The notes under the pieces were generated by a model. It was given only the letters and a program-made list of their open reading frames with translations, did no database searches and was not told where the DNA came from. From assembly GCA_965262855.1 (NCBI GenBank), contig OZ253563.1:1635011-1699010 (forward strand): a stretch of DNA of 64,000 nucleotides, given 5' to 3'. The DNA is from Arenicellales bacterium. Lineage in GTDB: Bacteria > Pseudomonadota > Gammaproteobacteria > Arenicellales > JAJDZL01. Positions 24,756 to 64,000 of the stretch are shown here, one piece after another. Each line of letters opens with the position of its first letter. Position 1 is the stretch's first letter. Made by a program: the position numbers and the translations under genes.

Positions 24756-25556
24756 GTGATAGTAATCACCGTGTGCAGCACCAAAGGCGGAGTGGGAAAA
24801 ACAAGTCTTTGTGCCAACATTGGAGGCTTTGCAGCAGACTGGGGATGGAAAGTTTTGCTCATTGATTCTGACCCACAACCGTCTCTAAGTAACTATTTTC
24901 CAGTTATCGAACGATCTCCATTCGGTCTCTCGCGAATATTTTCACATGCTGAAATAGGCAAATCCATTAGTAAGACGGCACAGTCTCGTCTGAGTATTGT
25001 GCTATCTGATGATCCTGAAAGCATTTGCGAACAAAATATTTCGCGGCTGACCGACGGCTGGAACCGCATGCGAACCGTTCTGCTGGAACTGGGCGGATAT
25101 GATTTGGTAATTATCGACACACAGGGAGCTTCCGGTGCAGTTGTCGACGCAGCCATTCTTTCAAGCGACGTACTTTTATCGCCAATCGTTCCAGATATGT
25201 TGTCGGCTCGGGAGTTTTTTGGAGGCACTATACGCACGCTACATCGTCTTGAACGTCAGTTTGGTTCTACTCACCTGCCAAAAACAATGAGTGGCGTCGT
25301 TTACAGAACACGCTCCACAGTCGATTCCAGGTTAGTCTCCCAACAGCTGAATTTACTGATTCACGGACTACCCAATGTAAGCCTGCTCACAACCAGCGTT
25401 CCTGACAGGACGGTTTACCGAGATGCTGCAACTGCACAAATTCCGGTACACAGATACGAACGAAAACGTAGGAGAGGAAGCAGCGCCAACGAAACAATGC
25501 TGTCGCTCGCGACAGAACTTCTACCTGATTTAGATTGCAACTTCGACGAAATTTAA
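24756..25556 (+). CDS. parA: ParA/Soj ATPase, ICE type
   Basis: STKGGVGKTS deviant Walker A, LIDSDPQ, IIDTQGA, YRDAATAQIPVHRYE. Confidence 0.92.
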   Translation: MIVITVCSTKGGVGKTSLCANIGGFAADWGWKVLLIDSDPQPSLSNYFPVIERSPFGLSRIFSHAEIGKSISKTAQSRLSIVLSDDPESICEQNISRLTDGWNRMRTVLLELGGYDLVIIDTQGASGAVVDAAILSSDVLLSPIVPDMLSAREFFGGTIRTLHRLERQFGSTHLPKTMSGVVYRTRSTVDSRLVSQQLNLLIHGLPNVSLLTTSVPDRTVYRDAATAQIPVHRYERKRRRGSSANETMLSLATELLPDLDCNFDEI

Positions 25557-25579
25557 TATTCAGAAATAAGGGAGGCATC

Positions 25580-27277
25580 ATGTCGCATCGCCCATCATCG
25601 CAGCAAGTCATGGAAAGATTGTTACCAGATACGATTGAAATTTGGAATAAAGACAGGAACTTCAAGAATGAACTCACTACGAGGACCTTTCTAACTGTCC
25701 CTATATCTGAGCTTCATTCCTACGATATGAATCCCAGAAGATTGGAAAATCCCAACTACGAGAAAATCAAAGAATCCATTTTAAACGACGGAATGAATCA
25801 ACCATTGGTAGTCACTCAGCGACCTGGTGAACAGAATTTCATGATCTACAAAGGTGGGAACACCCGTTTAAAGGCAATAAGAGAACTGTATGAAGAAACC
25901 GGAAGCCGCAAATTCAAATTCATTGATTGCTCATTTCTCCCCTGGAGCGGACTTGAATCTGATGCCATCATAGGCCATCTACAAGAAAATGAAATGCGTA
26001 AATCACTGTGTTTTATCGACCGGGCTCACGGTGTCAAACTAGCCATGAACTACCTCAAATCAGAATCTGAAGAAATCAATCTTTCCCTGCGAGAATATCT
26101 TTCACTTCTAGCTAAAAGGGGGTTCAGCACAACAATCAGCACTCTTTCTATCATGGTATACGCGACCGATATCGTGGAGCCTTTGCTACCGCGCAACGTC
26201 TGTGCATCGCTAGGTAGGCCGCAAGTTCAAAAACTAAGAGCACTTGAAAATTCATTTCGGAAAGTTTGCGACGAATTCAAACTCACCGAGAGTAAACAGC
26301 GAGACTTATTCAGCCAATCATTGCAGAAATTTGATGAATCTATTTGGTCACACAAAAGTTTTCGGCGTTCACTAGAAACGTTGCTTGCCGATTCTCAATC
26401 AACATCTATCCAGGATATCTCTCTTCGACTAAATGGTTACTTGAATCTTTCCTCGATGCCACTTAGTGAATCTCCCGAAATAATAGATAAAAAATATATT
26501 CATTCTGTTCCAACAAATCGACAAAAGCTGTGCACCGATTTGGTGCGTCAACAAGGTGTTTACAGTGTAAACACCTCAAAATCTCCTAATATATTGCACC
26601 ATTTTGGTGCAGATAGTGATTTGAGAAATAACGTTCAATCTCCAAATTCGGAAAAAACCCAGTCAAAATCTGACCCTGTTACTAAAAGTCGAACTCCGGT
26701 GATACCAAAACTAACTCCAGCGAAACGTTCGATGAAAGAGACAGATGCCGAAATCGAGCTAGAGTCGCTTCGCAGGCAAGCCTACGAATTAGCATGGCGT
26801 CTGGCAAAACGTCACTCGTTCCATGAAAATTCGGATACAAAAAGAGAAATCGTTTCCAATACTGGAAATTGGGGAGTGGGATACCTCATAACCGACTACC
26901 CCGCTGCTGCAACAGGACTCAGTGCTAGTCTCTCTGGCACACGTGATGCCTTGTGGTGGCTCCTGCTTGAAAATTGCGACTTGCAGTGGGCTATGGAGTG
27001 TGCAAGGCCACTAACCGCTAAAATTGTCGGTAACTCTGAGCTACGCCACTACATTAAATCTGGGAATGCAAGAACTTTGTACATGCACGCCAAAGACAAG
27101 ATGAAATGTACATACCCTCACTTAGGATTATTGAATTTCTGCATCCGACAACTTGACGATGAATCCTGGAATGACGTCCACCAATTGACATGGACATATC
27201 GATGGCTTCACCAACTAGCGAGAGCCAATAATATCCATCTATTTAAATTACCGAAAACCGGAGGTATACCTACATGA
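25580..27277 (+). CDS. parB: ParB-family protein, PFGI-1 class
   Basis: YDMNPRR..NPNYEKIKESI..GMNQPLVVTQRPG..GGNTRL; GGAGG RBS before ATG 25580. Confidence 0.88.
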   Translation: MSHRPSSQQVMERLLPDTIEIWNKDRNFKNELTTRTFLTVPISELHSYDMNPRRLENPNYEKIKESILNDGMNQPLVVTQRPGEQNFMIYKGGNTRLKAIRELYEETGSRKFKFIDCSFLPWSGLESDAIIGHLQENEMRKSLCFIDRAHGVKLAMNYLKSESEEINLSLREYLSLLAKRGFSTTISTLSIMVYATDIVEPLLPRNVCASLGRPQVQKLRALENSFRKVCDEFKLTESKQRDLFSQSLQKFDESIWSHKSFRRSLETLLADSQSTSIQDISLRLNGYLNLSSMPLSESPEIIDKKYIHSVPTNRQKLCTDLVRQQGVYSVNTSKSPNILHHFGADSDLRNNVQSPNSEKTQSKSDPVTKSRTPVIPKLTPAKRSMKETDAEIELESLRRQAYELAWRLAKRHSFHENSDTKREIVSNTGNWGVGYLITDYPAAATGLSASLSGTRDALWWLLLENCDLQWAMECARPLTAKIVGNSELRHYIKSGNARTLYMHAKDKMKCTYPHLGLLNFCIRQLDDESWNDVHQLTWTYRWLHQLARANNIHLFKLPKTGGIPT

Positions 27278-27879
27278 CTATCAAGAAAGAAGCTGAACTA
27301 ATGAATGCCATTATTGTCTATTGCCACCGATGTCACGATGAAGGTGACTTCTCTGCTCTCACGGAAATGGGCTTCGGTCCCCGTGAAATGAAAGCTCTTA
27401 ATTCGTTATCCTCGGCCGATAGATTACGACTTGCATCCACTAGAACGCATTTTCTAAATATCACAATTAATCAGGAAGTGTATTGGAGAATGATTGACTA
27501 CATCTACCGAGAAAACGATAAGGAAGCTCTTATTGATGAGTTAGTATCCCATGATGCCCCCCTACCAATGATGTACGCTCTGACGGGAATGGGCAGCAAA
27601 CAATATTCCTTGAAGCGTAGACAATACGGACTTGGGCATTCGCCGGCAGGCCGACCTCGCATCCCCACCGACGAAGTTGTCGATTTAGTTTGGACCGAAT
27701 TGAAGAATATTGTCAGTGAATCGACAACATTTGGACCGAAGGAATTTCTAGTTTTATTCAATTCGATGGATAAAGAAGTGCCATTACGAGTCATTTGGAA
27801 TCTATTCTACCGGTGGGAAAAAGATGGAAATTTGAGAATACATCGCTCCGGCTCAGAACAAACAACAAATGAATCGTAG
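27274..27879 (+). CDS. DUF2857 / STY4526-family ICE protein
   Basis: Follows parB with ATGA overlap; MMYALTGM..KRRQYG..GR motif. Confidence 0.8.
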   Translation: MTIKKEAELMNAIIVYCHRCHDEGDFSALTEMGFGPREMKALNSLSSADRLRLASTRTHFLNITINQEVYWRMIDYIYRENDKEALIDELVSHDAPLPMMYALTGMGSKQYSLKRRQYGLGHSPAGRPRIPTDEVVDLVWTELKNIVSESTTFGPKEFLVLFNSMDKEVPLRVIWNLFYRWEKDGNLRIHRSGSEQTTNES

Positions 27880-27949
27880 CCTCATTGCTCAATCGTGAAT
27901 CTCGTGCTAGTCTCGACGATCTTCGCCGGAAATTTGTTTCCTTTGGAAA

Positions 27950-29323
<1,374 letters not shown>

Positions 29324-29626
29324 ACAGGTTAGTTGTATACCGAAAGTAACAAATTTTCGAGAATCAACTCAATCATGACCCTTCATGTAGACCTAGAGCA
29401 TGTAATTGCATGAATATACAAATTCACGAGCACACAGCACCGCAAAGACGCGGCAAAAATTATCACAATGCCTTTTTTCACGAAATCTTCCAACACCCGG
29501 TGTACTCTAAGGAGTTATTTCAACTGCTATTTTCTGAACAGGTATTTAACCTGTTTGACTGGACAACTCTGAAACGGGAATCGTCTCATTTTCAAGATGC
29601 ACAGCATCGTGAGAGACGGGCAGACC

Positions 29627-31859
29627 CAGGGCGAATTTTTGTTCAGTTCAACTGTATGATATGAAATAAATAGCGTCTGATACTGGACTTTTCTGATTGA
29701 TTCGTGTATGGTTCAGCCAACTGAAGTTGAACTGAAACGGTGAGAGATGAATTTGTCGGAGTTGGTCATCGTACCGGTCAGACGCGACGAGGAGGAGAAA
29801 TTCCTTGCGCTGATGCGGCAGCATCACTATCTTGGCGCCCCGCACAAGATCGGTGAGAGCGCGTTTTATGCCGCGGTTTTGCAGGGCCGATGGGTTGCGC
29901 TGAGTTCATTTTATGCGGCGGCCCTGAAAAGCCGCGCCCGAGATGAGTGGCTCGGCTGGCACCCAAGAGACCGTGGCGCAAGACTGCACCTGATCACCAA
30001 CCAGAGCAGATTCCTCATTCTGGAGCCGATTGCGAATCTCGCATCCCGCACTTTATCGTTGCTGGCCAAGCGTGTCGTCAAGGACTGGCCGGTGCGATTC
30101 GGACACCCGGTGCTGCTGATGGAGACTTTCGTTGACCCGCAGCGCTTTGCCGGAACCTGTTATCGCGCGGAGAACTGGATACAGATCGGGCAGACGGCCG
30201 GCTATCGGCGACAACGCCGCGGCTACCGACAAGGCTCATCACCGAAGCTGATGTTTGTGCGCCCGCTTCGGTCAGATGCGCGCCGGTTGCTCGGTGGCGC
30301 ACATCTTGATTCCCACTATTTCCCGAAAGGAGTTTGCAGGAAAATGTATACGGACGCGGATTTCAAGTCATTGCTGGATTATTTCTCACACATTGAGGAC
30401 CCGCGCGGGCGTCGCGGGCGGCGCTATCGCCTCGGGACACTGCTGGCCATTGCGGCGGCAGCCACAGTTTGCGGTGCGCGCGGCTATCAGGAGATGGGCG
30501 AATGGGTACAGGCGCAGTCAGAAAAGGTGCTTCGTCATTTCAGGGTTGGATTGCGGCGTGGCAAAGTCCAGCGTCCAAGCGTGTATTGCATCCGCGAGGC
30601 GCTGGTCAGAACCGACCCCGGGCAGTTCGATGACGCGCTTCGCAAATGGTGCATATCGATTGACGGCTGCGATGAGGCGATTGCGATCGATGGCAAGACG
30701 ATGAAAGGAGCGGTTGACGGGAACAATCGCCAGATTCATGTGCTGGGCGCCTGTGGGCATCAAAGTCGCATGCATCTGGCAAAAAAAAAGATGAGGCTTG
30801 ACTCGGACGGGAGTGAGGAGCAAAAGTACACCAACGAGATCGGCGCGTGCATCCCGTTGCTGAAATCGATTGATGACCTCAATGGCAAAGTGATCACCGC
30901 TGATGCGCTGTTGACGCAGCATGCGATTGCGAGCTATATTCTCAGCCGGGGCGGGCACTATATGTTTATTCTCAAGAACAACCAGAAAGATCTCACTGGC
31001 GAGGTGAGTATTCATTTTACCGATCTGCTTCGACTCAGACCGGATACTGAAGCTGACTTTGTCACCCGCACCGGTGACGCGACCGATGCAGGGAAAAAGG
31101 TGCCCAAGGTCCAGCATGGACGTCATGAGATCCGCGAAATCCGGGTCAGCGACAATGCCGAACTGATGGCGTATCTGAATCGCGAGTCGAAATTTCCGGA
31201 CATCGCGCAGATATTCCGCATTCGTCGCACGATTGACCACTACCGGCGTGGCGAGGTAACCAAGACGACGCAGGAAACCGTTGTCGGGATCACCTCACTG
31301 CAAGCCGCTCAGGCTGATCCGAAGACTTTGCTGGGGCTCAACCGCGGCCATTGGACCATTGAATCGAATCATCGCATTTTGGACGACTCAAACACCTGGC
31401 ACGAGGATCACCTTCTGATTCGCACCGGGCATGGACCGGAAAACGTCACGGCACTTCGCCGATTTGCGATCTCGGTGATCAGACGGCACGCAGAATCAGT
31501 TGCGCCGACGATGCGCAAATTGCGCACCAACGCACGTTTGCTCCTGGATTATCTGGGCCTGGCCGGGAACACGCGACGCAGGGGTCGGCGTTCGCCGATC
31601 ACCGGGGCCGTATGTCGATAACCCACCGAATTGTGATTGCGAAAAATCGTTGTTCGGCAACAGCCGAAACAGGAAAAATCCGTACTCCCATAGGACAGTT
31701 CACTGAAAGAATACTGAAAATCGGTTGCGGCATCACCTGAAGCGGTTCAAATCAGGCACAGTGCATGGTTTCATGCCAGTGGCCTGAACATACTTGTGAT
31801 CCATAGGCTAAAATCACGAGTCGATGGCGTTCGGTTAGCGTGACAAAAAATTTGCCTTG
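29627..31859 (+). mobile_element. ISAs1-family insertion sequence (2233 bp) with 10-bp target duplication CGGGCAGACC
   Basis: TSD at 29617-29626 and 31860-31869; imperfect IRs CAGGGCGAATTTTTGTTCA / reverse complement CAAGGCAAATTTTTTGTCA; GC-rich. Confidence 0.9.
29747..31621 (+). CDS. DUF4338 (DruA-like) domain fused to an ISAs1 DDE transposase
   Basis: N-terminal HHYLG..NQSRFLIL..LMETFVDP..GTCYRAENW; C-terminal EDPRGRRG, IAIDGKT, ITADALLTQ, LKNNQ, RGHWTIESNH. Confidence 0.88.
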   Translation: MNLSELVIVPVRRDEEEKFLALMRQHHYLGAPHKIGESAFYAAVLQGRWVALSSFYAAALKSRARDEWLGWHPRDRGARLHLITNQSRFLILEPIANLASRTLSLLAKRVVKDWPVRFGHPVLLMETFVDPQRFAGTCYRAENWIQIGQTAGYRRQRRGYRQGSSPKLMFVRPLRSDARRLLGGAHLDSHYFPKGVCRKMYTDADFKSLLDYFSHIEDPRGRRGRRYRLGTLLAIAAAATVCGARGYQEMGEWVQAQSEKVLRHFRVGLRRGKVQRPSVYCIREALVRTDPGQFDDALRKWCISIDGCDEAIAIDGKTMKGAVDGNNRQIHVLGACGHQSRMHLAKKKMRLDSDGSEEQKYTNEIGACIPLLKSIDDLNGKVITADALLTQHAIASYILSRGGHYMFILKNNQKDLTGEVSIHFTDLLRLRPDTEADFVTRTGDATDAGKKVPKVQHGRHEIREIRVSDNAELMAYLNRESKFPDIAQIFRIRRTIDHYRRGEVTKTTQETVVGITSLQAAQADPKTLLGLNRGHWTIESNHRILDDSNTWHEDHLLIRTGHGPENVTALRRFAISVIRRHAESVAPTMRKLRTNARLLLDYLGLAGNTRRRGRRSPITGAVCR

Positions 31860-32610
31860 CGGGCAGACCTGATCCTGTCGGTGGTCGCAAGAGATAGCGG
31901 TAGAGAGTATCGAATGTTTTTTATGATTGAGCACAAGAGTACGCAAGATTCGCGAGCAATGCAACAGATACTGGAATATCAAACCTGCTACTATGCGGTT
32001 GAAGATCATCCGTTAATTACTATACTGGTCTATCACGGCCACGTGAAGAAGTGGAAGAGTCCACTACAGTTTCAAGATGCAATGAAAGATTTGCCTCCGT
32101 CTATGCGTGAAGAGTATGGCAGTGCACTGCAGAACATCAATTGTCAGTTGCTGAATTTGCAAGATGAGGAAATTCAACAACTAGCCAAAGTGTTGGAATG
32201 TGAAGTGGCAGTATATATACTGTGCGAATTACGACAACTGACAGATAAAAAAGTCCAGGAGATATTCCGCTCCAGATTGAAGATATTCGACAAGAAGAAA
32301 CGAGAGTATCTAATATATCAGACAGCTTACTATATTCAGGGATGTCACCCGATAAAATACTCGATAAATCGATTGATCATGCTTGAACAGAATACCTTGA
32401 AGGAGGCAGACAGAATCATGCCAAATTATCAAACTAGCATGGACATATTACGTGAAGATGCGCGCGAAGAAGGACGCGAAGAAGAACGCGAATTTATTGC
32501 TATGAAGATGATTCGCAGGGGTGCGGATTTTGACACGATTAGCGAATTTACTCGGCTAAACCCCAAACGCATATCGGAATTGCGGAGTAAAGTCATCCTT
32601 TGACTTCACT

Positions 32611-33528
32611 TCATAACTGCTTATTTTTATCTAACAGAAAATTTCGTGCTTTCCATGCCTGTGCGCTGGAAGCAAAGATTGCTTTGGGATCATAATCCAA
32701 ATCACGTATCCAGGAAAGGAGATATGATTCGTGAAGCAATTCGCCTCGGATTCCAAATTCTGCACATAGAAAAGCAGAGCCAATTTCTGCAATCATTTCT
32801 TCAAACGCGTATGCCTTGGGCTCACCGTCAGTAGGGAAGGCAATACCGCGCCGATTCAGTCGGGAGGCATGTCCCGTCCAGTGAGTAAGTTCATGCATCA
32901 AGGTGCTGTAATAACCTGCTGTTGATTTAAAGGCAGCTTTTGGCGGCATCCGAATAAAATCTCTCTTTGGACTGTAGTAAGCATTGTCATTGTCATGTCG
33001 AATATTTACTCCGTTTGAAATAATGAGATTGTCAGCTGCCTGGTGTAATTTCCAATTTGGAATTTTAGTCTTCACAACAGGACCAGTGATGATGTCCTGT
33101 GGCAGCCCACTACACTGCTCGACATTGAATAGTGTGAATCCTCTAATCAATTTGATCGTATCCATTTCAGGCTGACCAGAATCATTCATTACATGAAAGC
33201 CCCTGAAGTCTTTTCTTACAATTTCAATATCTCTATATAAAACCGCAACTGTACCTTTTTGCCCACGGCTAACTTTACCACCCACAGCCGACACTTGATT
33301 GAATGTCAGCCATCGGTCACGCGCAAATCCTCGGGAAGCAGCAGAAATCCAAAGAATCGTTACATTAACTCCAGTGTACTTTCTATCAGTTACGGCGTTA
33401 GTGGGTCGATCAGTGTAGGGAACATCTTCCGACCACGGTTTGATCCAAGGCGGAGCCCCAGTTTTCAGAGCTTCAATAAATTGATCTGTAATTTTTTGGT
33501 ATAAGCTTTTTGGACTATTCCGAGCCAT
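32611..33528 (-). CDS. ardC: ArdC/DUF1738 antirestriction ssDNA-binding protein with zincin-like domain
   Basis: PPWIKPW, YTGVNVTIL, RWLTFNQ, FNVEQC, HELTHWTGH, YAFEEMIAEIGSAFL. Confidence 0.9.
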   Translation of the reverse strand: MARNSPKSLYQKITDQFIEALKTGAPPWIKPWSEDVPYTDRPTNAVTDRKYTGVNVTILWISAASRGFARDRWLTFNQVSAVGGKVSRGQKGTVAVLYRDIEIVRKDFRGFHVMNDSGQPEMDTIKLIRGFTLFNVEQCSGLPQDIITGPVVKTKIPNWKLHQAADNLIISNGVNIRHDNDNAYYSPKRDFIRMPPKAAFKSTAGYYSTLMHELTHWTGHASRLNRRGIAFPTDGEPKAYAFEEMIAEIGSAFLCAEFGIRGELLHESYLLSWIRDLDYDPKAIFASSAQAWKARNFLLDKNKQL

Positions 33529-36640: not shown

Positions 36641-36821
36641 TTTAAAAAAGAAACTTACATGCAATATTCCCTACACACCAGGTTCAAGCTCGATGTTAAT
36701 CGTTATTACCAATGTCACTACAACCCTGTCCAGTAGCTCTGATACTAGAAACAAAAGTTCACCTTCAGTTCCTCTCGTCGTTCCGAAAAAAAGTCCACTG
36801 GCTCGACTAGTAGCGAGAACC

Positions 36822-48101: not shown

Positions 48102-48222
48102 GCAGAACTTACCAATAGTGAAAGCAGATTACAGCGCCTGTCAACTTCCCCTGAAAATTACGTTCACTCAGTTTTGGAATTTCCATACATGTCTTCATTG
48201 AACAGGCAATATAAGAATTTTT

Positions 48223-52686: not shown

Positions 52687-55496
52687 TTTTTAACATAAAA
52701 AATTGGTTTTCTCGGGAAAACAGCGTAGAAACACAATCAAATGAAGGAATTCAGCTCGTGGAATGGAATGGAAGAGGATGCGAACCGATAACGGTTGAAG
52801 AATATATGGAACCGCAACTGCATCCTGACTCAAACTATCGAAAGCTCGTTAAAGATACTCGCTCATTCACAGACTTGTTAGCTCCACGAATTGATTTGAA
52901 TAACAACACAATTGGACTTCAAGACTTAACTAGTACCGGGAAAGTGTTCGACGTAGTATGTGGCAGTACAGAGGCACGACCTGCAGAGATGCTCAGCAAC
53001 ATGAATGACAGAGTATGCCAGGCAATTGGTCGGGGGATTCCTGAACTTGCAACTAACCCCTGGATCATTCAGTGGTTTATACAAGACGACAGTGACAATG
53101 GATTTCGCACGCTCTCAAATCAGATTTCTACATATGCAAAACAATCAATTAGAGAGAGTGCTTACTCAAAGGACTGGTTGCGTACTTTAGAGAGGCATTT
53201 TCACGACATGACTGCAACTGATGGACTATTTCCAGATTCCAGTTCAATTGGGGGTAGATGGCGGGGCAAGTGTCGTCGGATTCGTTTATGTATCTGGCGA
53301 AAAAATCCAATTCAGAGACGGTCCGATGACGGAAACATTGAACAAGTCTGTACACAATTGATCAATGCACTAGGTCAGGCAGATGTTCAACTGCTTCCAA
53401 CGGGTGCCAAAGAACTGTATGAGTGGCTAACATTCTGGTTTGTACCCTCCCCCGATGCATGTACAGGATTTAAAAGTACCCATGCATTATTGGATGCATA
53501 TCCTTGGAACCCGAGCTTAGAAAATCGATCCATGTCGTTATTCTCGAATTCCGCGAGTTCCGATATTAGTCGCGCTTCGCTACACGGTGCTGCTCCCTGG
53601 ACATGGAAAAAACCTGGCATTTGGTGGTTTAGGGGACAACCTAGCCGATTTATAACGTTGGATGAATTAACTGGAGAACCAGAGATTGGACACTTGACTG
53701 GTGAGCGGCGACTTGGAGATTCAATCGGCACACTATGGGATCAAATGCCGGCAAAGTCCATCTGGTCCATGACGATTGTCTACACTCCGCAAAGTGAAAT
53801 AGAAGAAAAAATCCTTTCCGTAAGACGAAACTCCGTTGGCGATGACCCCGCAGCTGCTGAACGAAGAAATCTAGCCAATTCAGCGCTTACGGAAATTGCT
53901 CGTGGTAATACAGTCTATAGAGTATTTTCTGGTGTATTTCTATTCGGAAGCAATTTACCTGAACTGAATAAGAACACAGAGCATGCACTGGGAGTATTAG
54001 CTGCCCACAAACTCAAACCAGTCTTTCCGCGATATGACCCAATCGCACTAGACAGTTACATTCGAGCTCTTCCATTTGGGTTCGATCCAGATCAGGACAG
54101 CAGGCCATTTGCTAGAAGGGCAAGACTTTGGTATTCGAGCCACCTCGGACGAGTAGTTCCAGCGTTCGGGCGATCGAAAGGGACTGGCTATCCAGGATGT
54201 ATTTTGTTTAATCGTGGCGCTGAACCGATCACGTTTGATCCACTCAACCCTACAGACAGAGAGAAAAATGCTCACTCGCTCATTCTCGGGCCGACTGGCT
54301 CAGGAAAGACAGCGTTCCTGATTTATTTCCTACTACATACGATGGCAGTGCACAGACCTCGAATCCTACTGATTTCAGCACTGCCAACATTCGGGCTGTT
54401 TGCTGATCATTGTGAAAAGCTAGGGTTGTCAATTCACCGTGTCAGGGTTGATGGTCAGAGTAGAGTCGCATTGCCCCCGTTCAAGCACGCTCAAATCTTG
54501 CTGAATCGTAAAAATGCTAAACTGGATTCATCTTCGTCAACAATTCGCGACCCGCTCGGAGAAATGGAAATTCAAGCGCGTCTAATGATAACCGGCGGGC
54601 AATCGAATGAAGAAAACAATCTACGACGAGACGACCTAGATTTGATTCGAATTGCACTGATGAATGCTGCAAAACGATCCGAGAGCGACAAGCGTGACCA
54701 AACGATGACTTCAGACTTGGTGAGTGCCTTACGAGATGCTTCTGATAGCGGTCGAATCGGCAATCATCGACTCACCAAAGAACAGAAACAAAGAGCTGCT
54801 CGAATGGCTGGTGCTGTTAATGTTTTTTGCACTGGGTTGAATGGCGAACTGTTTGATCGCGAGGGAGACTATTGGCCAGCAACCGACATTACTGTCGTTG
54901 AACTTGGACTGCTGGCTCGAAGAGGCTACGAAGATCGTCTCGCAGTGGCTTTGACTGGCCTGTTTTCCATGATCAATAACGAGATTGAAGCAAATCAATA
55001 TCAGGAAAGACAAACGATTGTCGTAATTGATGAGGCACATGTACTGTTACAGAATCCTCTGATCTCTCCTTATGTTAATCGCATCTCTGCAATGTGGAGG
55101 ACATTCGGTGCTTGGTTGTGGATCGCAACACAAAATCTCCGCCAATTCCCTGACAATGCAAAAGAACTACTCAATCAGCCTGAATGGTGGTTTTGCCTGT
55201 CTCTAGACAAAGATGAAATTGATCAACTTGGGCGTTTCAAATCTCTTACTCAACAGCAGAGAAGCCTGCTGCAATCGGCGCGAAAATCCCCAGGCCGATA
55301 CACTGAAGGAACTGTAATTTCCGCCAGACTACTAACACTATTCAGAAACGCCCCTCCTGCAATTGCACTTGCACTGAGTCAAACAGAAAAAAGCGAAAAA
55401 GCTGAAAGAGCAAAGCTCATGAAAGAAAAAAATATTTCCGAAATCGATGCAGCTTACTTGATCGCCGAATCGATCAGAATTGACAGAAGCAAATAA
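52683..55496 (+). CDS. virB4: VirB4/TraC-family conjugative ATPase (PFL_4706 family)
   Basis: NPWIIQWFIQD, WRGKCRRIR, FNRGAEP, LILGPTGSGKT, IDEAH, WLWIATQNL. Confidence 0.93.
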   Translation: MIFNIKNWFSRENSVETQSNEGIQLVEWNGRGCEPITVEEYMEPQLHPDSNYRKLVKDTRSFTDLLAPRIDLNNNTIGLQDLTSTGKVFDVVCGSTEARPAEMLSNMNDRVCQAIGRGIPELATNPWIIQWFIQDDSDNGFRTLSNQISTYAKQSIRESAYSKDWLRTLERHFHDMTATDGLFPDSSSIGGRWRGKCRRIRLCIWRKNPIQRRSDDGNIEQVCTQLINALGQADVQLLPTGAKELYEWLTFWFVPSPDACTGFKSTHALLDAYPWNPSLENRSMSLFSNSASSDISRASLHGAAPWTWKKPGIWWFRGQPSRFITLDELTGEPEIGHLTGERRLGDSIGTLWDQMPAKSIWSMTIVYTPQSEIEEKILSVRRNSVGDDPAAAERRNLANSALTEIARGNTVYRVFSGVFLFGSNLPELNKNTEHALGVLAAHKLKPVFPRYDPIALDSYIRALPFGFDPDQDSRPFARRARLWYSSHLGRVVPAFGRSKGTGYPGCILFNRGAEPITFDPLNPTDREKNAHSLILGPTGSGKTAFLIYFLLHTMAVHRPRILLISALPTFGLFADHCEKLGLSIHRVRVDGQSRVALPPFKHAQILLNRKNAKLDSSSSTIRDPLGEMEIQARLMITGGQSNEENNLRRDDLDLIRIALMNAAKRSESDKRDQTMTSDLVSALRDASDSGRIGNHRLTKEQKQRAARMAGAVNVFCTGLNGELFDREGDYWPATDITVVELGLLARRGYEDRLAVALTGLFSMINNEIEANQYQERQTIVVIDEAHVLLQNPLISPYVNRISAMWRTFGAWLWIATQNLRQFPDNAKELLNQPEWWFCLSLDKDEIDQLGRFKSLTQQQRSLLQSARKSPGRYTEGTVISARLLTLFRNAPPAIALALSQTEKSEKAERAKLMKEKNISEIDAAYLIAESIRIDRSK

Positions 55497-57279: not shown

Positions 57280-57885
57280 ATGATCCCCATGGACGAGTTC
57301 AGTACGCTCATTCAGGTAATACTGATTGATCTGCTATTCGCAGGCGACAATGCGATTGCTGTCGGTCTAGTTGCAGCCGGATTGCCTAAATCCCAACGTA
57401 CAAAAGTAATTGCCGCAGGAATTGGTTTAGCCGTTATTTTGAGAATAATATTCGCTGTTGCAACGGTTCAATTGTTGAAAATTCCGGGCCTGCTGCTGCT
57501 TGGCGGGCTTCTGCTTCTTTGGGTAAGCTGGCGACTTTATGTGGATCTTCGTCAACGAACGGCTTCCGAAGATGCTGGGGGAGATGCGGTAGAAAGTAAT
57601 TCACTTACTTTCAAACAAGCTCTTTTCCAAATTTTAGCTGCAGACGTTTCAATGTCACTCGATAACGTATTGGCAGTTGCAGGAGTTGCACGCGAGCACA
57701 TTACGATTCTGATTTTTGGCCTTGTTCTTTCAGTTGTGCTTATGCTTGTTGCAGCAACACTGATCGCGAATATATTGAACAGACATCGATGGATTGCCTA
57801 TATAGGTATTGCCATAATTCTATTTGTAGCTGGATCCATGATGTGGGAAGGCACTCATGACTTAGTTAAAATAATTTCTACTTGA
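57280..57885 (+). CDS. TerC/YjbE-family integral membrane protein
   Basis: IDLLFAGDNAI, ADVSMSLDNVLAVAGVA, LIFGL. Confidence 0.9.
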   Translation: MIPMDEFSTLIQVILIDLLFAGDNAIAVGLVAAGLPKSQRTKVIAAGIGLAVILRIIFAVATVQLLKIPGLLLLGGLLLLWVSWRLYVDLRQRTASEDAGGDAVESNSLTFKQALFQILAADVSMSLDNVLAVAGVAREHITILIFGLVLSVVLMLVAATLIANILNRHRWIAYIGIAIILFVAGSMMWEGTHDLVKIIST

Positions 57886-57918: not shown

Positions 57919-59043
57919 TTGGAAGAACTAAATCAGCGGATACAGAAAATGGACGGTAAAAACTCATATGTTCAATTTGTAGATGTTCAAAAAAGTTACG
58001 ATGGAGAAACTCTTATCGTAAAAAATTTGAACCTTTCGGTTGAACAGGGCGAATTTGTAACGTTACTGGGACCGTCAGGCTCTGGCAAAACCACTTGCCT
58101 CATGATGCTTGCGGGATTTGAAACTGCCACCCACGGAGAAATCATTCTTGATGGGGCGCCAATCAACAACGTTTCTCCCCATAAACGCGAAATTGGAATG
58201 GTTTTCCAGAACTATGCCCTATTCCCGCACATGACAGTTAGCGAAAATTTGGCATTTCCGTTGCGAGTTCGTAAATTGCCTGCTTCTGAAATTGACAGTC
58301 GAGTGAAACAAGCACTAGATATGGTGCAACTTGCCAATTTGGGGGCAAGGCTACCTGGTCAATTATCGGGTGGTCAAGCGCAAAGAGTTGCTGTAGCACG
58401 CGCATTGGTTTTTCGACCTAAACTCGTCTTAATGGACGAACCCTTGGGGGCACTTGATAAGCAGCTTAGGGAGCGGATGCAGTTCGAAATAAAACATATA
58501 CATGAAAGTCTGGACGTCACTGTAATTTACGTGACGCACGATCAAGGAGAAGCACTCACAATGTCCAACCGCATTGCGGTATTCAACGATGGTGTAATTC
58601 AGCAATTAGCACCGCCAGGCGATCTCTATGAAAAACCTGAAAATGCTTTTGTTGCTCAGTTCATCGGTGAAAACAATGTTTTGTTTGGTAAAGTACGACA
58701 CATATCAAATGGACTATGCGATGTAGAAGTTTTAGATAGAAGTGTTGTCAAGGCTAAAGTTGTAAATGTAGAGGGTGTCGGGTCACCTACCACACTGTCT
58801 CTTAGACCGGAGAGAGTAACTGTCAACCCCGAAAGTGGAACCTGTGCCAACATGGTTGAGGCGAGCGTTGAAGAAGTCATTTATCTTGGCGATCATGTCA
58901 GAACCCGCGTCAGCCTATGCGGGCATGACGATTTCGTCATCAAAATTCCAAACTCACATAACAGAGTCGATTTGGATTACGGGGATAAAATCTCCGTAGG
59001 TTGGCAGCCCGAAGATTGCCGCGCACTTGATGCAGTAGCATAA
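57919..59043 (+). CDS. PotA-like polyamine ABC transporter ATP-binding protein with TOBE domain (orphan here)
   Basis: GPSGSGKT, VFQNYALFPH, LSGGQAQR, MDEPLGALD; alternative ATG at 57949. Confidence 0.9.
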   Translation: MEELNQRIQKMDGKNSYVQFVDVQKSYDGETLIVKNLNLSVEQGEFVTLLGPSGSGKTTCLMMLAGFETATHGEIILDGAPINNVSPHKREIGMVFQNYALFPHMTVSENLAFPLRVRKLPASEIDSRVKQALDMVQLANLGARLPGQLSGGQAQRVAVARALVFRPKLVLMDEPLGALDKQLRERMQFEIKHIHESLDVTVIYVTHDQGEALTMSNRIAVFNDGVIQQLAPPGDLYEKPENAFVAQFIGENNVLFGKVRHISNGLCDVEVLDRSVVKAKVVNVEGVGSPTTLSLRPERVTVNPESGTCANMVEASVEEVIYLGDHVRTRVSLCGHDDFVIKIPNSHNRVDLDYGDKISVGWQPEDCRALDAVA

Positions 59044-59096: not shown

Positions 59097-60320
59097 TCAA
59101 GAATGCTGCAAAATAACCTTTCGCAGGATTTCCATCGCACGAGATATTTCTGCTTTGCGAATGGTAAAAGCAGGGAGTAGTCGAATGACACTAGGTCCCG
59201 ATTGAAGAATGAGTAAACCCTCACTTAAACAGGCTTGCATGATTTTCGCAGCAATTTGACCGTGTTCCTCGCGTATTTCTGCACCTATCATCAAGCCCTT
59301 ACCTCGAATTTCGCTAAAAAAGTTCGTTTGTTGATTGATACCTTTCAACATATCAAGCAAGTAGTCACCTTTCTCAACGATTTCATTAAGAAAATTTGTT
59401 GAACTGACTTTATTGAAAACCACGCGCGCAACCGCGCAACAGATAGGATTGCCACCGAATGTCGATCCATGACTGCCTAGACTTAAGGTCTCTTCTAATT
59501 TTGGGCCCAATAGTGTCGCTCCGATCGGAAGTCCTCCCCCAAAAGCTTTTGCAACAGTAATTATATCGGGAACGACATTTTCCGCCCAAGAGTGAGCAAA
59601 CAGTTTGCCTGTTCGCCCCATTCCGCACTGTACTTCATCACAAATTAACAACGCCTGATTATCTTCGCAGAGTCTACTGACATGTCTCAAGAAATTAGTT
59701 GAAAAGAGTCGTATTCCTCCTTCGCCCTGGATGGGTTCAAGCATTACCGCGCACACATCCGAACTGAAGAGCTCGTTTAGGTGTTCAATATTGTTGAACT
59801 CACAATATCGAAATCCACCAGGAAGAGGTCCGAAGCCTTCGTGATATTTTGGCTGAGCCGTAGCAGTTACGGAAGCAATTGTTCTGCCGTGGAAAGAACC
59901 GGTGAATGTGATAATCGTTCGTTTGTCCGACGAGAAATTGTCGTACGCAAATTTACGGGCAACCTTTATTGCCGCTTCGTTGGCTTCTGCACCAGAGTTG
60001 CAGAAAAATACTCGATTTGCAAATGTCTTTTCAACAATTTCGCTGGCCAATCGAACCGGTGGTTCCGTGAAATAAATGTTACTCGTGTGCCAGAGCCGAT
60101 CTGCTTGTTCCATCAGAGCTGCTAGAATTTCTGGATTTCGATGTCCTAGGCAATTGACACCGATTCCGGAGCCGAGATCCAAATATTCATTGCCGTCAAC
60201 ATCCCACAGAGTGCTACCGTATCCTGATTCAAACACAACATCACGCGGTTTGTAGTTGGGTGCATACGACTGATGCCCGAGAGAAATCATGTGAGATTGA
60301 TTGTCACTACTAATTTCCAT
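59097..60320 (-). CDS. argD: Acetylornithine/succinyldiaminopimelate aminotransferase (minus strand; ORF track shows + in error)
   Basis: CAT at 60318-60320, TCA at 59097-59099; FCNSGAEANE, SFHGRT, EPIQGEGG, DEVQCGMGRTG, AKAFGGGLP, HGSTFGGNP. Confidence 0.92.
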   Translation of the reverse strand: MEISSDNQSHMISLGHQSYAPNYKPRDVVFESGYGSTLWDVDGNEYLDLGSGIGVNCLGHRNPEILAALMEQADRLWHTSNIYFTEPPVRLASEIVEKTFANRVFFCNSGAEANEAAIKVARKFAYDNFSSDKRTIITFTGSFHGRTIASVTATAQPKYHEGFGPLPGGFRYCEFNNIEHLNELFSSDVCAVMLEPIQGEGGIRLFSTNFLRHVSRLCEDNQALLICDEVQCGMGRTGKLFAHSWAENVVPDIITVAKAFGGGLPIGATLLGPKLEETLSLGSHGSTFGGNPICCAVARVVFNKVSSTNFLNEIVEKGDYLLDMLKGINQQTNFFSEIRGKGLMIGAEIREEHGQIAAKIMQACLSEGLLILQSGPSVIRLLPAFTIRKAEISRAMEILRKVILQHS

Positions 60321-60321
60321 A

Positions 60322-61479
60322 TTAACCTTCCGCAGGATGCTTCTCGCATAACAAAATTTTCAAAATTTGTTCGTATATCAAGGACAACTGGTTTAAATCA
60401 TCGAGTCCAACACATTCATTCACTCTATGAATTGTTGTATTCAACGGTCCAAGCTCCACAACTTGAGCACCAGATTTCGCAACAAAACGACCGTCCGAAG
60501 TTCCTCCAGCAGTTGATAATTTCGGCATTCGGTTGATAGTTCTACTAACCGCTTCCGATACAACACTAGTGAAAAACCTGCTTTCGTTATAGTATGAATC
60601 TGCAGAATTGGTCCAAGTGGCTTCATAATTGAGTTTCAGTTCTCGGCAAAGATTCTCTACTTGTTTTGTTAGAGTTCTGGCATTTGTTGCAGGAGAATAG
60701 CGAAAGTTCAAATTGAGATGCAGCAGTCCAGGAATTACGTTAGCTACACCTACACCCGAATTTACATTTGAAATTTGCAATGTTGTGTTGGGGAACAATT
60801 CATCGCCGTCATTCCATTTCATGCTTGCGAGACCAGAGATTAACTCCCCTGCTCGATGAATAGGATTGTCAGCAAGGTGTGGATAAGCAACGTGTCCTTG
60901 CTTTCCGTAAACTACGATTTCACCAGATAAAGATCCTCTTCGCCCAACTTTCATGGTATCGCCCAATACGACTTCCGACGTCGGTTCTGCCACCAAACAA
61001 TAATCTATTATCTCAGAGCGATTCAACAGCTGATCAAGGGCATAACGAGTTCCATTTATAGCAACACCTTCTTCATCACTCGTAATTAGCAGTGATACCG
61101 ATCCAACAAAAGAGTTTTGACATGCAAAAAACCTCTCGCAAGCAGTAATGATGGCAGCAATGCTGCCTTTCATGTCTGCTGCTCCCCGCCCATGCAGGAA
61201 ACCATCAGCCAGTGTCGCTGAAAATGGTGGATAGGTCCATTCCGACTCGTTTCCGATAGGCACTACATCGGTATGGCCAATGAAGGTCAATAGCGGGGAT
61301 TTAGTGCCTTTGCGAGCCCAGAGATTTTTTACCTCACCACAATCCATGGTTTCAATTTGAAAGCCCACGGACTCTAGCCGGCTCGCAATGATTTGCTGAC
61401 AACCCCCGTCTTCCGGAGTGATTGAGCGTCTGCCTACTAATTCTCTAGCTAGGCTAATTGTTTCTGTTTCTGTTGACAT
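60322..61479 (-). CDS. dapE: Succinyl-diaminopimelate desuccinylase
   Basis: GHTDVVP, GRGAADMKG, SDEEG, GRRGS, QGHVAYPH, GGTSDGRF, TIHRVNE; 1 bp before the argD start. Confidence 0.95.
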   Translation of the reverse strand: MSTETETISLARELVGRRSITPEDGGCQQIIASRLESVGFQIETMDCGEVKNLWARKGTKSPLLTFIGHTDVVPIGNESEWTYPPFSATLADGFLHGRGAADMKGSIAAIITACERFFACQNSFVGSVSLLITSDEEGVAINGTRYALDQLLNRSEIIDYCLVAEPTSEVVLGDTMKVGRRGSLSGEIVVYGKQGHVAYPHLADNPIHRAGELISGLASMKWNDGDELFPNTTLQISNVNSGVGVANVIPGLLHLNLNFRYSPATNARTLTKQVENLCRELKLNYEATWTNSADSYYNESRFFTSVVSEAVSRTINRMPKLSTAGGTSDGRFVAKSGAQVVELGPLNTTIHRVNECVGLDDLNQLSLIYEQILKILLCEKHPAEG

Positions 61480-61744
61480 TATCGATTGGAACAAGAAAAG
61501 TCGGTTGAATTGGATTTGTGATTATATTTTTTTACGAACTCCAATTATCTGAATTAGATGTTCTTTGCAAAGGGTATGTCTTGCAAAATTAACCTAATTG
61601 AGTAAATACCCGTTATTGCACAACAAAGCGAATCAATCATTGAAATTCATCATTTGAATAATTCCTCAATCCTAGAAGTTGGAGTTGTTTGTGTAGTTAC
61701 GTGGTTTTCAAATTATCGTTTACATATTAATTGAATTAGGTGCT

Positions 61745-63073
61745 TTGATGTTTCGACTATTGAAATGTTTATTTCGCTCTTATCGCTCGTGGTTGATTAC
61801 CGCACTACTTTTCGGTGGAGTCAACTTCAGTTTGAGTGAATGTGTGAGAGGTGAGGATTCAATCGCAAATATTCCTCTATATTATTCGCTGGGCGGTAGC
61901 AAAGCCACCAACTCTCCCGCTTCTGATTCTTCTCGACTTCGTCTCATGCGAACAAACTCAGGTTGGCCAAGTACCATATGTGGCAGTTTTAACCCGTCCT
62001 TTGACATTCAGGAGATGTTATCGGACCAGTTGAACGACACATTGACAACACTCAGTTCAATTCCTCAAACTATCACTAGTGCTCTTCCTGGCTACATACT
62101 ATGTCGAGCAAAGCCAGGGTTATGCCAATTGCTTCAACACTATGTAGTGAGGGCTGAAAACAAATGGAACCTGTCAGTCAAATCTTGCGAAGAATCTATG
62201 CAGGCTCTCGCTGATGGGAATGACCCATTCCAGGATCTAGTAAAAGTCTCCAAAATTCAAGAATGGCAAAAACAAGCAGTTCTTGGTTCAAGCGCCACCG
62301 AGGCGAAACGAAAGGCGGACAATGCCGATGGTTGCGTAGTGTGGGTAGGCGGTAAAACATCTGGATGTTCTGGCAAAGAACCGATCTGGCTAACGCAAGA
62401 CACAACAAAAGCTGGATGGTGCCTTCTGCTCAACCAGGACAGCAATTGCACCAATGCACCGAGTCAAACAAATTCCGCAAAGGAATCGATCCTCCGAAAG
62501 ACTTGGTCGACACCAGACGCCGCTAGTGATTGGATAACGGATGTCATTGGAGACTATCGAGTGCAAGCTGGGGAAAATTCCTCTACTGTCCCCGGCACTG
62601 GACTATTGCCCAAAATTGACGAAGAATCAGTTCAAATTCAGACGAATTTAACCAGCCTTGTTTACTCTGCGGTACCGCCGCACGAGTCGGACATGGAAAA
62701 TTTACGAACCAATCAAGTTTCACTTTCTGCTTCATTAATTGATGCGCTGCGCGACTTGCCAGACCGTGAATTCTTAATTGCCCGAATCTCCAATGAAATC
62801 GCTCTTTCGCGCATTGTCGATAGAGCATTTCTCGCACGACGTCTATTGCTAAGCGGACTAATGGAACCAAACATTCAGAGCACCGGCACCGCACCTGAAA
62901 CAATTCATAAGCAAATTGAAGTTTTAGAGCGAGAAATTGAACGAGTCACTTTTGAAATGCAAATTAGTCGACGTCTTGTATCCGACACCATATTGAATGT
63001 ACTCGGTGCGCATCGTGCATTTATGACTCCAGCGCCTCCCGCACGCCGCAACCCGCCATCGCTCCTACAATAG
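61745..63073 (+). CDS. PFL_4711-family ICE protein (TIGR03755-like)
   Basis: LYYSLGG, CGSFNP, ALPGYILCRAKPGLCQLL, ADGCVVWVGG, VIGD, GTGLLP. Confidence 0.88.
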   Translation: MMFRLLKCLFRSYRSWLITALLFGGVNFSLSECVRGEDSIANIPLYYSLGGSKATNSPASDSSRLRLMRTNSGWPSTICGSFNPSFDIQEMLSDQLNDTLTTLSSIPQTITSALPGYILCRAKPGLCQLLQHYVVRAENKWNLSVKSCEESMQALADGNDPFQDLVKVSKIQEWQKQAVLGSSATEAKRKADNADGCVVWVGGKTSGCSGKEPIWLTQDTTKAGWCLLLNQDSNCTNAPSQTNSAKESILRKTWSTPDAASDWITDVIGDYRVQAGENSSTVPGTGLLPKIDEESVQIQTNLTSLVYSAVPPHESDMENLRTNQVSLSASLIDALRDLPDREFLIARISNEIALSRIVDRAFLARRLLLSGLMEPNIQSTGTAPETIHKQIEVLEREIERVTFEMQISRRLVSDTILNVLGAHRAFMTPAPPARRNPPSLLQ

Positions 63074-63083
63074 TCTCAATTAA

Positions 63084-64000
63084 ATGAGTGTTCACTCCTA
63101 TTTCGAATTGACCACTACGCTAATCGGATGGCACATAGCAAACGGGATTGCACAATTGCTAGTGTCGAGCGGCTTGATATTTGTTCCATTTGGAGTAGCT
63201 CTGTATCGTAATTGGGCATGGCCAACAAGAAGTCAAGAATCAAAGAATGCTGCTTCGGTTTCACTACGGAGAATGGAACAGGACATGTGCATAGCTACAG
63301 TTGTTGTCATATTTTGTTTTCTGCCTGCAGTCCCGATTGATCCAAGTCGGATTGTGTACTACGATTCGGAATACAAAAAGTCGATTACCGCTGCAGACCC
63401 AAATGTTCCGTATATGCGCAAGACACACACAACTGGTGAAATTCGTACACCTATCTTGTGGTGGCTTGTTTATCAAATTTCGTCACTCCTAACACTTGCT
63501 GTTGTAGATGTTATTGAACTTCTTGGCCAGCCTGGCGTGTTACGTCCAATATTGTTACGAATCTCTCAAGTAGATTTAACTGACGAACCTCTCATAAACG
63601 AAATGCGTGCATTTCGTTATGATTGTTATGAGCCATCATTAGCTAAATATCAAAACAGTGATAATCCACCAAAACCAGCGAATCTGTTTGAAGATGTTGA
63701 CTGGTTAGGATCCCATTTGTTTTTAACTACGCCGGGATACTACAAAAAGTGTGAACAAGTTCCCATTTGCGGAACTGGCTATCACGCAAATACAGAAATT
63801 CGGAGTTGGCGTAGGGTGAACGATTCAGAATCAATCACTTCTGGAAAACCCAACTGCGACGTTTGGTGGGCTCATCCAAATCTCGGACTGAGGTCGAAAC
63901 TGCTTGCCAATATGAATGAGAGATACCCATGGTTTAAGGATGATGTCGATAGAATCAGGGCTAGCTTACAGGGAAATGATGCAACACTGCTGTTTAACAG
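63084..64000 (+). CDS. traG: TraG N-terminal-domain protein, runs off the window; absent from ORF track
   Basis: MSVHSYFELTTTLIGWHIANG..SGLIFVPF..PILWWLVY..FRYDCY..DVDWLGS..CDVWW; open to 64000. Confidence 0.85.
   Translation, partial: MSVHSYFELTTTLIGWHIANGIAQLLVSSGLIFVPFGVALYRNWAWPTRSQESKNAASVSLRRMEQDMCIATVVVIFCFLPAVPIDPSRIVYYDSEYKKSITAADPNVPYMRKTHTTGEIRTPILWWLVYQISSLLTLAVVDVIELLGQPGVLRPILLRISQVDLTDEPLINEMRAFRYDCYEPSLAKYQNSDNPPKPANLFEDVDWLGSHLFLTTPGYYKKCEQVPICGTGYHANTEIRSWRRVNDSESITSGKPNCDVWWAHPNLGLRSKLLANMNERYPWFKDDVDRIRASLQGNDATLLFN

Follow-up and report, generated by a model that had tools for sequence, protein, structure and literature searches.

Gene content of the secretion and pilus island

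The right-hand part of a 64,000-nucleotide stretch of contig OZ253563.1 from an Arenicellales bacterium (the whole stretch is referred to below as the window) carries an island that combines genes of a type IV secretion system (T4SS) with an operon for a type IVb thin pilus. By family content, this is a T4SS of mating-pair formation class G (MPF_G, or genomic island [GI] type), the class known from integrative and conjugative elements (ICEs) such as ICEclc, PFGI-1 and ICEHin1056. With two exceptions, all class-specific proteins are found, several of them above the curated cutoffs and others clear yet below (the TIGR03745–03759 set, RAQPRD and TraG_N). The exceptions are two membership features of the class, namely the cognate type IV coupling protein (T4CP) TraD (TIGR03754/TIGR03743), which is absent from the cluster, and the inner-membrane protein TIGR03747/DUF4400, which is absent as well.

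The MPF genes are all encoded on the forward strand. The first is a conserved protein without a family match (46517–47305), which occupies the position of ICEclc orf73029 and is found in all 26 related loci described below as well as in sister ICEs; it is followed by the thioredoxin-like protein TIGR03759 (PFL_4693; 47400–48101; NCBIfam E = 4e-25). Beyond a short spacer lie the RAQPRD-family protein (48223–48615; TIGR01690, 59.9 bits, cutoff 50), the inner-membrane protein TIGR03758/DUF3262 (48619–48840; Pfam PF11660), essential in ICEclc, and TIGR03745/DUF2976 (48842–49240; Pfam PF11190), a candidate VirB2-like pilin that is single-copy and strongly conserved, with a ratio of nonsynonymous to synonymous substitution rates (dN/dS) of 0.04–0.14. 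These are followed by the VirB3-like TIGR03750 (49132–49590; NCBIfam E = 1e-11; the real start is probably downstream of 49132), the VirB8-like TIGR03746 (PFL_4703; 49594–50211; 164 bits, cutoff 137), the VirB9/TraK-like TIGR03749 (50148–51008; 144 bits, cutoff 139), the VirB10-like TIGR03752 (51021–52337; 301 bits, cutoff 241), the lipoprotein TIGR03751 (52252–52686; 95 bits, cutoff 78) and the TraC/VirB4 ATPase of the PFL_4706 class (52683–55496; TIGR03744, 894 bits, cutoff 521). The Walker motifs of the latter, reported in the initial annotation, are present (Walker A GPTGSGKT, Walker B VVIDEAH) and are invariant in all ten copies from the fixed locus. The right end of the cluster comprises the thioredoxin-like TIGR03757 (55505–55948; E = 3.5e-16), the TraU-like TIGR03756 (55780–56985; 264 bits, cutoff 188; the listed start of this open reading frame [ORF] is over-extended), the TraH-like TIGR03755 (PFL_4711; 61745–63073; 289 bits, cutoff 270) and the VirB6-like TraG_N, which starts at 63084, is cut by the window end at 64000 and is 514 aa long on contig L001 of the same strain (L numbers denote retrieved contigs and loci).

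The junction at which TraD and TIGR03747 are absent (48102–48222, no strand) is a 121-bp spacer with no ORF of note, as compared to ~2.6 kb in the sister ICEs. The initial annotation placed the end of PFL_4693 at 48101 and the start of RAQPRD at 48223 and considered the coupling protein to be missing in between; coordinates and identities hold, and tblastn searches with Arenicellales TraD and TIGR03747 queries yielded zero matches anywhere in the 64 kb at a threshold as permissive as E ≤ 10, and no remnant at the same threshold in any retrieved fixed locus. The same annotation expected four genes in this interval. The ICEclc gene table agrees, with the order TIGR03759, lytic transglycosylase, DUF2859, TraD/IceD4, TIGR03747, orf67800, RAQPRD (PMC10018362); against the nearest sister ICEs, however, which likewise have neither the transglycosylase nor DUF2859 between TIGR03759 and TraD, the interval is short by two genes only, TraD and TIGR03747. 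The small gene thought to be missing between PFL_4711 and traG is indeed missing: only 10 bp separate the end of TIGR03755 at 63073 from the start of TraG_N at 63084, where ICEclc encodes the 119-aa orf55120 (PMC10018362).

Of the 14 genes essential for ICEclc transfer, the locus contains 12 (PilL/IceB7, TIGR03758, TIGR03745, TIGR03750, TIGR03746, TIGR03749, TIGR03752, TIGR03751, VirB4, TIGR03756, TIGR03755 and TraG_N), the missing ones being TraD/IceD4 and TIGR03747; the latter, a predicted inner-membrane component, is essential for ICEclc transfer (PMC10018362). Also absent are genes that are dispensable or partly needed in ICEclc, namely those for the lytic transglycosylase, DUF2859, orf67800, RadC, DsbA and orf55120. 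Accordingly, the view that all channel genes are intact stands for the MPF genes that are present but is overstated, given that TIGR03747/DUF4400 is missing along with TraD. A relaxase (MOBH TraI) was found neither among the ORFs scanned across 1–64000 (some small ORFs left out) nor among the ORFs located 3' of traG on L001 and L012–L014. Thus, the element contains no detected TraD, relaxase or TIGR03747 elsewhere, a possibility that had been raised at the outset.

The pilus operon precedes the MPF genes on the same strand. It starts with the PilL lipoprotein (35879–36640; Pfam TcpQ domain), the analogue of the DotD-like IceB7 in the ICEclc gene table, followed by pilN (secretin), pilO, pilP, pilQ (ATPase), pilR (platform), pilS (pilin) and pilV (adhesin) at 36630–44982, and by a PilM/PilU-like prepilin peptidase (45877–46320; Peptidase_A24, Pfam PF01478). 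The assignments rest on Pfam matches (Secretin, PAP_PilO, T2SSE, T2SSF, PilS), PilV being recognised by position and a prepilin-like N-terminus only, and the R64/IncI-type thin-pilus set is complete (PilN, PilQ, PilR, PilS, the positional PilV and the prepilin peptidase). In the lineage of the window, L015 and L016, the pilN–pilV block (region 36630–45800) is mosaic and has a GC content of 0.50–0.58, versus 0.40–0.46 in the flanking island genes. It is nearest to the ICE copies L017/L018 of another Arenicellales genome (~77% DNA identity over 5.2 kb), with PilS and PilV distances of 0.18–0.28 to these copies versus at least 0.65 to the orthologues from less closely related fixed loci. It seems that, in this lineage, a mobile ICE was the source of a replacement pilus module in the fixed locus. 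An intact gene for a 717-aa protease lies between pilV and pilM in L017/L018; at 45111–45716 (forward strand), the window contains a decayed C-terminal remnant of such a subtilisin-like protease, a pseudogene with frame changes and in-frame stops that, in a tblastn alignment, has 45–55% identity to the L018 protease with stops inside the alignment.

The C-terminal part of PilV includes three 84-nt tandem repeats (44393–44625) encoding 28-aa units of the form LTGEVNxNExAIExNR. Close relatives are short of ~35 residues at this place, i.e., have about two repeat copies versus three, and the Cys-rich tip that comes next has diverged much further than the first 330 residues of the protein, even between near-identical strains. 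An Rci-type shufflon was considered as the source of this variation and rejected: downstream of pilV, only weak and no convincing shufflon-like inverted repeats were detected, and the variation consists of repeat copy number and tip divergence.

The left end of the island consists of a DNA-handling module and several insertions. On the forward strand, a parA-like gene (24756–25556; NCBIfam ParA partition ATPase) adjoins the chromosomal metZ and is followed by a ParB-family protein of the PFGI-1 class (25535–27277; TIGR03764, 205 bits, cutoff 144; 25 of 26 loci; dN/dS 0.10–0.15), a DUF2857 protein conserved in the relatives (27274–27879; Pfam PF11198, E = 4e-33; dN/dS ~0.06) and an STY4528-family "pathogenicity island replication protein" (27950–29323; NF040582, 153 bits, cutoff 130; 26 of 26 loci). 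An ArdC-like gene (32611–33528; ArdcN single-stranded DNA [ssDNA]-binding domain, PF08401, and zincin metallopeptidase, PF18818) is inverted here, on the reverse strand, and has the forward orientation in 23 of the 26 related loci. The parB, DUF2857, STY4528-family and ArdC genes (25535–33528 and orthologues) are under purifying selection, with dN/dS of 0.06–0.15. Between them, a 624-aa insertion sequence (IS) transposase on the forward strand (29747–31621; Pfam DruA-like N-terminal domain, DDE_Tnp_1_assoc and DDE_Tnp_1) splits a YhgA/Rpn-like (Transposase_31) gene into fragments at 29410–29664 and 31857–32603; this position is empty in the close relative L016. Upstream of pilL, at a distance of 330 bp, there is an IS5-like transposase (34131–35549, reverse strand; Pfam DUF772 and DDE_Tnp_1) that L015 and L016 do not have.

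Fixation in the chromosome and vertical descent

The MPF cluster was initially described as uninterrupted, which is not the case: a 4.7-kb block of four housekeeping genes separates TIGR03756 from TIGR03755 (57280–61494; all assigned above NCBIfam cutoffs), namely yjbE of the TerC family (57280–57885) and a potA-like ABC ATPase (57919–59043) on the forward strand, and argD (59097–60320) and dapE (60322–61494) on the reverse strand. Because these genes sit inside the MPF cluster, excision of the locus would remove argD and dapE. The yjbE and potA genes directly follow TIGR03756 in all nine genomes that cover the right half of the locus, and the remainder, argD-dapE-TIGR03755-TraG, is seen in eight of the nine; the exception is L007, which contains additional insertions and the locus of which runs out within argD. 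A scan at the Rfam gathering thresholds detected no riboswitch before yjbE and no match in the whole window, and a promoter and terminator consensus scan of 45–64 kb found fewer promoter-like sites than in shuffled sequences.

The same architecture is widespread in this order. A search with TraC identified nine species-representative genomes (62–98% identity), the nearest records being OZ244867.1 (98% identical) and CBDCPT010000004.1 (96%), and a search with PilQ retrieved 33 loci. The order parB-DUF2857-STY4528-ardC-pilL..V-pilM-orf-TIGR03759-RAQPRD is shared by 26 species-level genomes, and the gap between TIGR03759 and RAQPRD (median ~93 bp) is seen in 26 of 26 related loci; of the seven other PilQ loci, one (L024) is on a short contig that ends before the junction and six have a different neighbourhood. 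In all nine genomes found with TraC, pilV, pilM, the conserved orf and TIGR03759 are followed directly by RAQPRD and the MPF genes up to TraC and TIGR03756. As a separate observation, L040 contains a 2.5-kb insertion (16641–19124) exactly at the TIGR03759/RAQPRD junction, with an opposite-strand 480-aa ORF that is methyltransferase-like by its N-terminal sequence.

The ORFs are full length in all loci save for a few lineage-specific losses, apparent stops being confined to over-extended N-termini of the query ORFs. Thus, in L008 and L009, there is no room for TIGR03757 between TraC and TIGR03756 (12832–12851), and the parA ORF is missing upstream of parB in one subclade (L021, L023, L026 and L029); universal retention of parA was, accordingly, rejected.

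Sister ICEs in the same order provide an internal control. The six PilQ loci with a different neighbourhood come from three genomes in which the fixed locus is present as well, with up to three copies per genome (ICE-copy loci L017/L018/L050, L044/L046/L049 and L047/L048). In these elements, the gene order is TIGR03759-TraD-TIGR03747-RAQPRD (TraD matches TIGR03754 at 662 bits, cutoff 648), and TIGR03756 adjoins TIGR03755 with no housekeeping genes in between. Compared with its nearest mobile relatives, the fixed locus thus displays a clean two-gene deletion and a four-gene insertion. A scan of the genome collection with Arenicellales TraD gave matches down to 39% identity in other orders, driven by the motifs IHADEFND and GNFNSMIM, which are near-invariant across orders; among Arenicellales, matches were found only in the three ICE-carrying genomes. 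Given this near-invariance, a TraD of this class in the other genomes, at least 23, should have been seen.

Phylogenetic analysis (neighbor-joining [NJ] on Kimura-corrected distances) places the fixed-locus TraC proteins apart from those of ICE copies and outgroups (bootstrap support, 100%), and the ICE copies, with TraC only ~50% identical to the fixed one, form a clade of their own. The tree of eight T4SS proteins and that of the four embedded housekeeping proteins have six of six internal splits in common (Mantel r = 0.983, p = 0.0002).

Between the window and its two closest relatives, nearly all locus genes have dN/dS of 0.06–0.45 (TraC, 0.14 and 0.19; TraG_N, 0.06) at dS of 0.04–0.57, mostly 0.04–0.3; the embedded housekeeping genes are at 0–0.32. 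The outliers, the conserved orf at 46517 (0.80) and TIGR03749 (0.57), come from the OZ244867 pair, for which dS is only ~0.05. In further pairs (L005/L007 with L022/L025, and L026/L031), with dS of ~0.5, the values are 0.04–0.33 (TraC, 0.067), and yjbE and potA are at 0.083 and 0.054; locus genes thus match the housekeeping genes embedded among them. Mixed-frame pairs resulting from over-extended ORF starts and pairs with saturated dS (L006/L011) were left out. The dN/dS comparison, suggested at the outset as a check together with a survey of the same locus in relatives, hence puts nearly all genes at 0.04–0.45 across three independent pairs of genomes, and the survey shows the TraD-less architecture in 26 species-level genomes with matching flanks where sampled. 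Together, these results support the original proposal that channel and pilus are maintained by selection in the absence of conjugative DNA coupling.

The chromosomal flanks are the same wherever they were sampled, which is in only some of the 26 genomes; for the right flank, the sample is smaller than elsewhere because TraG as the only query returned 3 loci. The island extends ~2.5 kb beyond the right end of the window. On L001, two recombinases come after TraG_N, the first XerC/D-like with 303 aa and the second of ~210 aa; beyond them, the chromosome resumes with a sixA-like gene, ppx and genes for a hydrolase, an alcohol dehydrogenase and a phosphoglucomutase. This tyrosine-recombinase pair (L001 5825–7524, ~1.8–3.5 kb past the window end) is also present in L012–L014; its second member (~205–212 aa) is weakly similar to FimB/FimE-type invertases, and only weak inverted repeats, not an invertible switch, were detected near the pair. 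Both recombinases and the same chromosomal genes are kept in a genome at 55% TraG identity. On the left, metZ (23156–24334, reverse strand) adjoins the island; in the relatives, metZ and, outside the subclade without it, parA can be seen wherever a retrieved locus extends far enough to the left. Three deep-branching members show metZ at their left edge, and it is the left neighbour in L021, L023 and L029 of the parA-less subclade. No tRNA genes were found in the window. Instead of the mobility that characterises an ICE, we observe a constant sampled context and a congruent tree across 9–26 species. On the sequence evidence, the locus is best regarded as the product of a single old fixation followed by vertical descent under purifying selection and not as a recently crippled ICE.

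To the left of 24334, the window is ordinary chromosome that encodes pstSCAB-phoU, a thiolase, a corrinoid methyltransferase set and an enzyme of the dimethyl sulfoxide (DMSO) reductase family. The neighbourhood at 14025–21040 (MtgC-like corrinoid protein, MtaA/CmuA-like methyltransferase, and a molybdoenzyme of the DMSO/thiosulfate reductase family with its Fe-S subunit) suggests methylated-amine or sulfur-compound metabolism. A 582-aa protein encoded at 1080–2828 on the reverse strand combines Schlafen AlbA_2 and HATPase_c_4 domains, a defence- or regulator-like architecture.

Possible functions of a secretion system without a coupling protein

In our assessment, the locus is likely to be an old, exapted MPF_G T4SS that, together with a type IVb pilus and without a coupling protein, has become a permanent feature of the chromosome; the gene content and its conservation indicate that the machine very probably does something other than conjugation. 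Under this scenario, an ancestral ICE of the ICEclc/PFGI-1/ICEHin1056 family would have been fixed in the ancestor of a large Arenicellales clade, TraD and its neighbour TIGR03747 would have been lost during or after fixation, and four housekeeping genes would have ended up inside the MPF cluster. The channel and thin-pilus genes are intact and under purifying selection (VirB2-, B3-, B4-, B6-, B7-, B8-, B9- and B10-like, TraU- and TraH-like proteins, and the thioredoxin-like helpers). Because there is neither a T4CP nor a relaxase, the apparatus is not expected to recruit cytoplasmic DNA or protein substrates in the canonical manner or to mediate its own transfer. Assembly of both channel and pilus would be powered by VirB4 alone, which should be sufficient given that virD4 mutants of Agrobacterium still make T-pili. 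The loss of TIGR03747 together with TraD suggests that this protein serves substrate coupling rather than assembly of the channel.

We propose that the locus encodes a contact organelle, in which the thin pilus would anchor the cell, via the strain-variable PilV tip, on a partner cell or the surface of a host, and the T4SS channel and pilus would then perform a step that does not depend on a T4CP. That this step amounts to attachment or aggregation only is possible. Adhesion, host interaction and protein export had been suggested at the outset; by analogy with ComB or Ced, DNA import is a comparably viable reading, although we would advance it only tentatively, and export of periplasmic substrates, by analogy with Ptl, seems rather unlikely. 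The more elaborate version of the import scenario, a domesticated apparatus for DNA import or chromosomal DNA exchange in which the PilV pilus holds the partners, the channel takes up DNA, and the ArdC-like, ParB-like and STY4528-family proteins handle ssDNA, is in our view doubtful; DNA import as such is kept alive mainly because parB, DUF2857, the STY4528-family gene and ArdC are retained under selection. If correct, it would make the locus the MPF_G counterpart of H. pylori ComB or archaeal Ups/Ced and reveal the first non-conjugative function of MPF_G.

Several points weigh against the interpretation of the locus as an exapted contact organelle. The exapted role is predicted from sequence. 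The negative results for T4CP and relaxase extend over the window, the retrieved loci and the TraD-class scan, and a coupling protein of another class or a relaxase may be encoded elsewhere in the genome. TIGR03747, being essential in ICEclc, might belong to the inner-membrane complex, in which case the channel would be incomplete. The housekeeping markers used in the congruence test are located inside the locus, such that the test is not fully independent, a problem mitigated by the conserved outer flanks. In this particular strain, the IS5-like element located 5' of pilL could affect pilus expression. Finally, selection on the parB, DUF2857, STY4528-family and ArdC genes is not accounted for by pure adhesion and hints at a DNA-related function.

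The alternative that fares best is that the locus still serves conjugation or mobilisation, with T4CP and relaxase supplied in trans from elsewhere in the chromosome or from co-resident ICEs, and moves ICEs, plasmids or, in the manner of high-frequency-recombination (Hfr) strains, chromosomal DNA. The co-occurrence of the fixed locus with complete, TraD-encoding sister ICEs in three genomes is compatible with this possibility, as are the retained DNA-handling genes and the interchangeability of parts between conjugative T4SSs and those without a relaxase (PMC3548315). However, the sister ICEs, retrieved as far as TIGR03755, bring their own MPF genes and would not need the fixed ones, and at least 23 fixed-locus genomes have no TraD match in a scan that relies on cross-order motifs. 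Moreover, MPF_G coupling proteins co-evolve with their VirB4 (PMC3548315), whereas the TraC proteins of the ICEs have diverged from the fixed ones to the extent noted above, and TIGR03747 is missing too. We therefore regard complementation in trans as unlikely.

Much less probable still is that the locus is a decaying, functionless ICE remnant retained only through the trapped essential genes argD and dapE. The losses of T4CP, TIGR03747 and relaxase, the IS insertions and protease pseudogene in the window, and the lineage-specific losses of parA and TIGR03757 might be taken as signs of decay, but ~25 genes are intact over 26 species at housekeeping protein distances of up to ~0.5, and catalytic motifs are invariant. 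Neutral decay predicts dN/dS of ~1 and stop codons rather than the ~0.04–0.3 observed at dS of ~0.5, and trapped essential genes offer 30 kb of flanking genes no shield from point-mutational decay. An assembly or binning artefact, a chimeric contig of a metagenome-assembled genome (MAG), could be imagined for a metagenome-derived window with IS elements but is virtually dismissed by the recurrence of the same junctions in many independent assemblies, including chromosome-level OZ records and two ENA metagenome contigs with identical proteins.

Relation to known systems

The locus shares with the MPF_G systems of ICEclc, PFGI-1, PAPI-1 and ICEHin1056 the same families in the same order (PilL, TIGR03759, RAQPRD to TraC, TIGR03757–03755, TraG_N) as well as the left-end module of parA, parB of TIGR03764, DUF2857 and the STY4528-family gene, and with PAPI-1 and PFGI-1, the R64-type pil operon. 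It differs from the MPF_G ICEs in having no TraD (IceD4), TIGR03747, lytic transglycosylase, DUF2859, orf55120-like gene or relaxase, in the four housekeeping genes located inside it, and in its fixation and vertical inheritance across an order-level clade, whereas the ICEs have a patchy distribution. The nearest relatives are the Arenicellales sister ICEs, with TraC ~50% identical and the same gene order; unlike the fixed locus, these keep TraD and TIGR03747 and were found in only three of the sampled genomes, each with at most three copies.

Conjugation machines of classes MPF_T and MPF_I are known to have been exapted. MPF_G has been described as almost exclusively ICE-borne (PMC4027160, PMC10018362), and as of 2012, protein delivery had been experimentally shown only for MPF_T and MPF_I (PMC3548315). 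We found no report of a non-conjugative role for MPF_G in the searchable literature and no publication that links Arenicellales with T4SS. The present locus is, accordingly, a strong candidate for the first exapted GI-type T4SS. It amounts to a clade-scale natural experiment, in at least 26 species, in which TraD and TIGR03747 were removed and the rest was long kept; the comparison speaks for a role of TIGR03747/DUF4400 alongside the coupling protein and not in channel or pilus assembly. For Arenicellales, a marine order often recovered from sponge microbiomes according to the order-level literature, which we assume to apply to these MAGs, it defines a candidate surface machinery. The combination of trapped essential genes with an ICE-derived pilus block would illustrate the path by which a mobile element can turn into property of the host and yet go on swapping parts with its mobile kin.

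Among T4SSs with known non-conjugative roles, the closest parallels are Bartonella Trw, Bordetella Ptl, Brucella VirB and H. pylori ComB, which, like the locus described here, are chromosomal, vertically inherited and conjugation-derived, have no T4CP or relaxase, and retain the channel, pilus and VirB4 (in part after PMC3548315 and PMC4027160). The features shared with such exapted systems are the absence of T4CP and relaxase from the element, chromosomal location, vertical descent and purifying selection. Their roles are diverse: Trw mediates adhesion, Ptl exports toxin from the periplasm, and ComB takes up DNA (PMC3548315, PMC4027160). All of these systems, however, belong to MPF_T and have demonstrated functions, whereas the Arenicellales locus belongs to MPF_G and is known from its genes. 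Furthermore, the pilus genes of Trw underwent tandem amplification and diversification, whereas the VirB2-like gene here is single-copy. The analogy with the archaeal Ced system and Ups type IV pili is purely functional: there, too, a domesticated machine of the conjugation type that has neither T4CP nor relaxase is accompanied by a cell-recognition pilus (PMC9905601). The gene set of Ced is unrelated, and DNA import, which is hypothesised for the Arenicellales locus, has been shown for Ced (PMC9905601).

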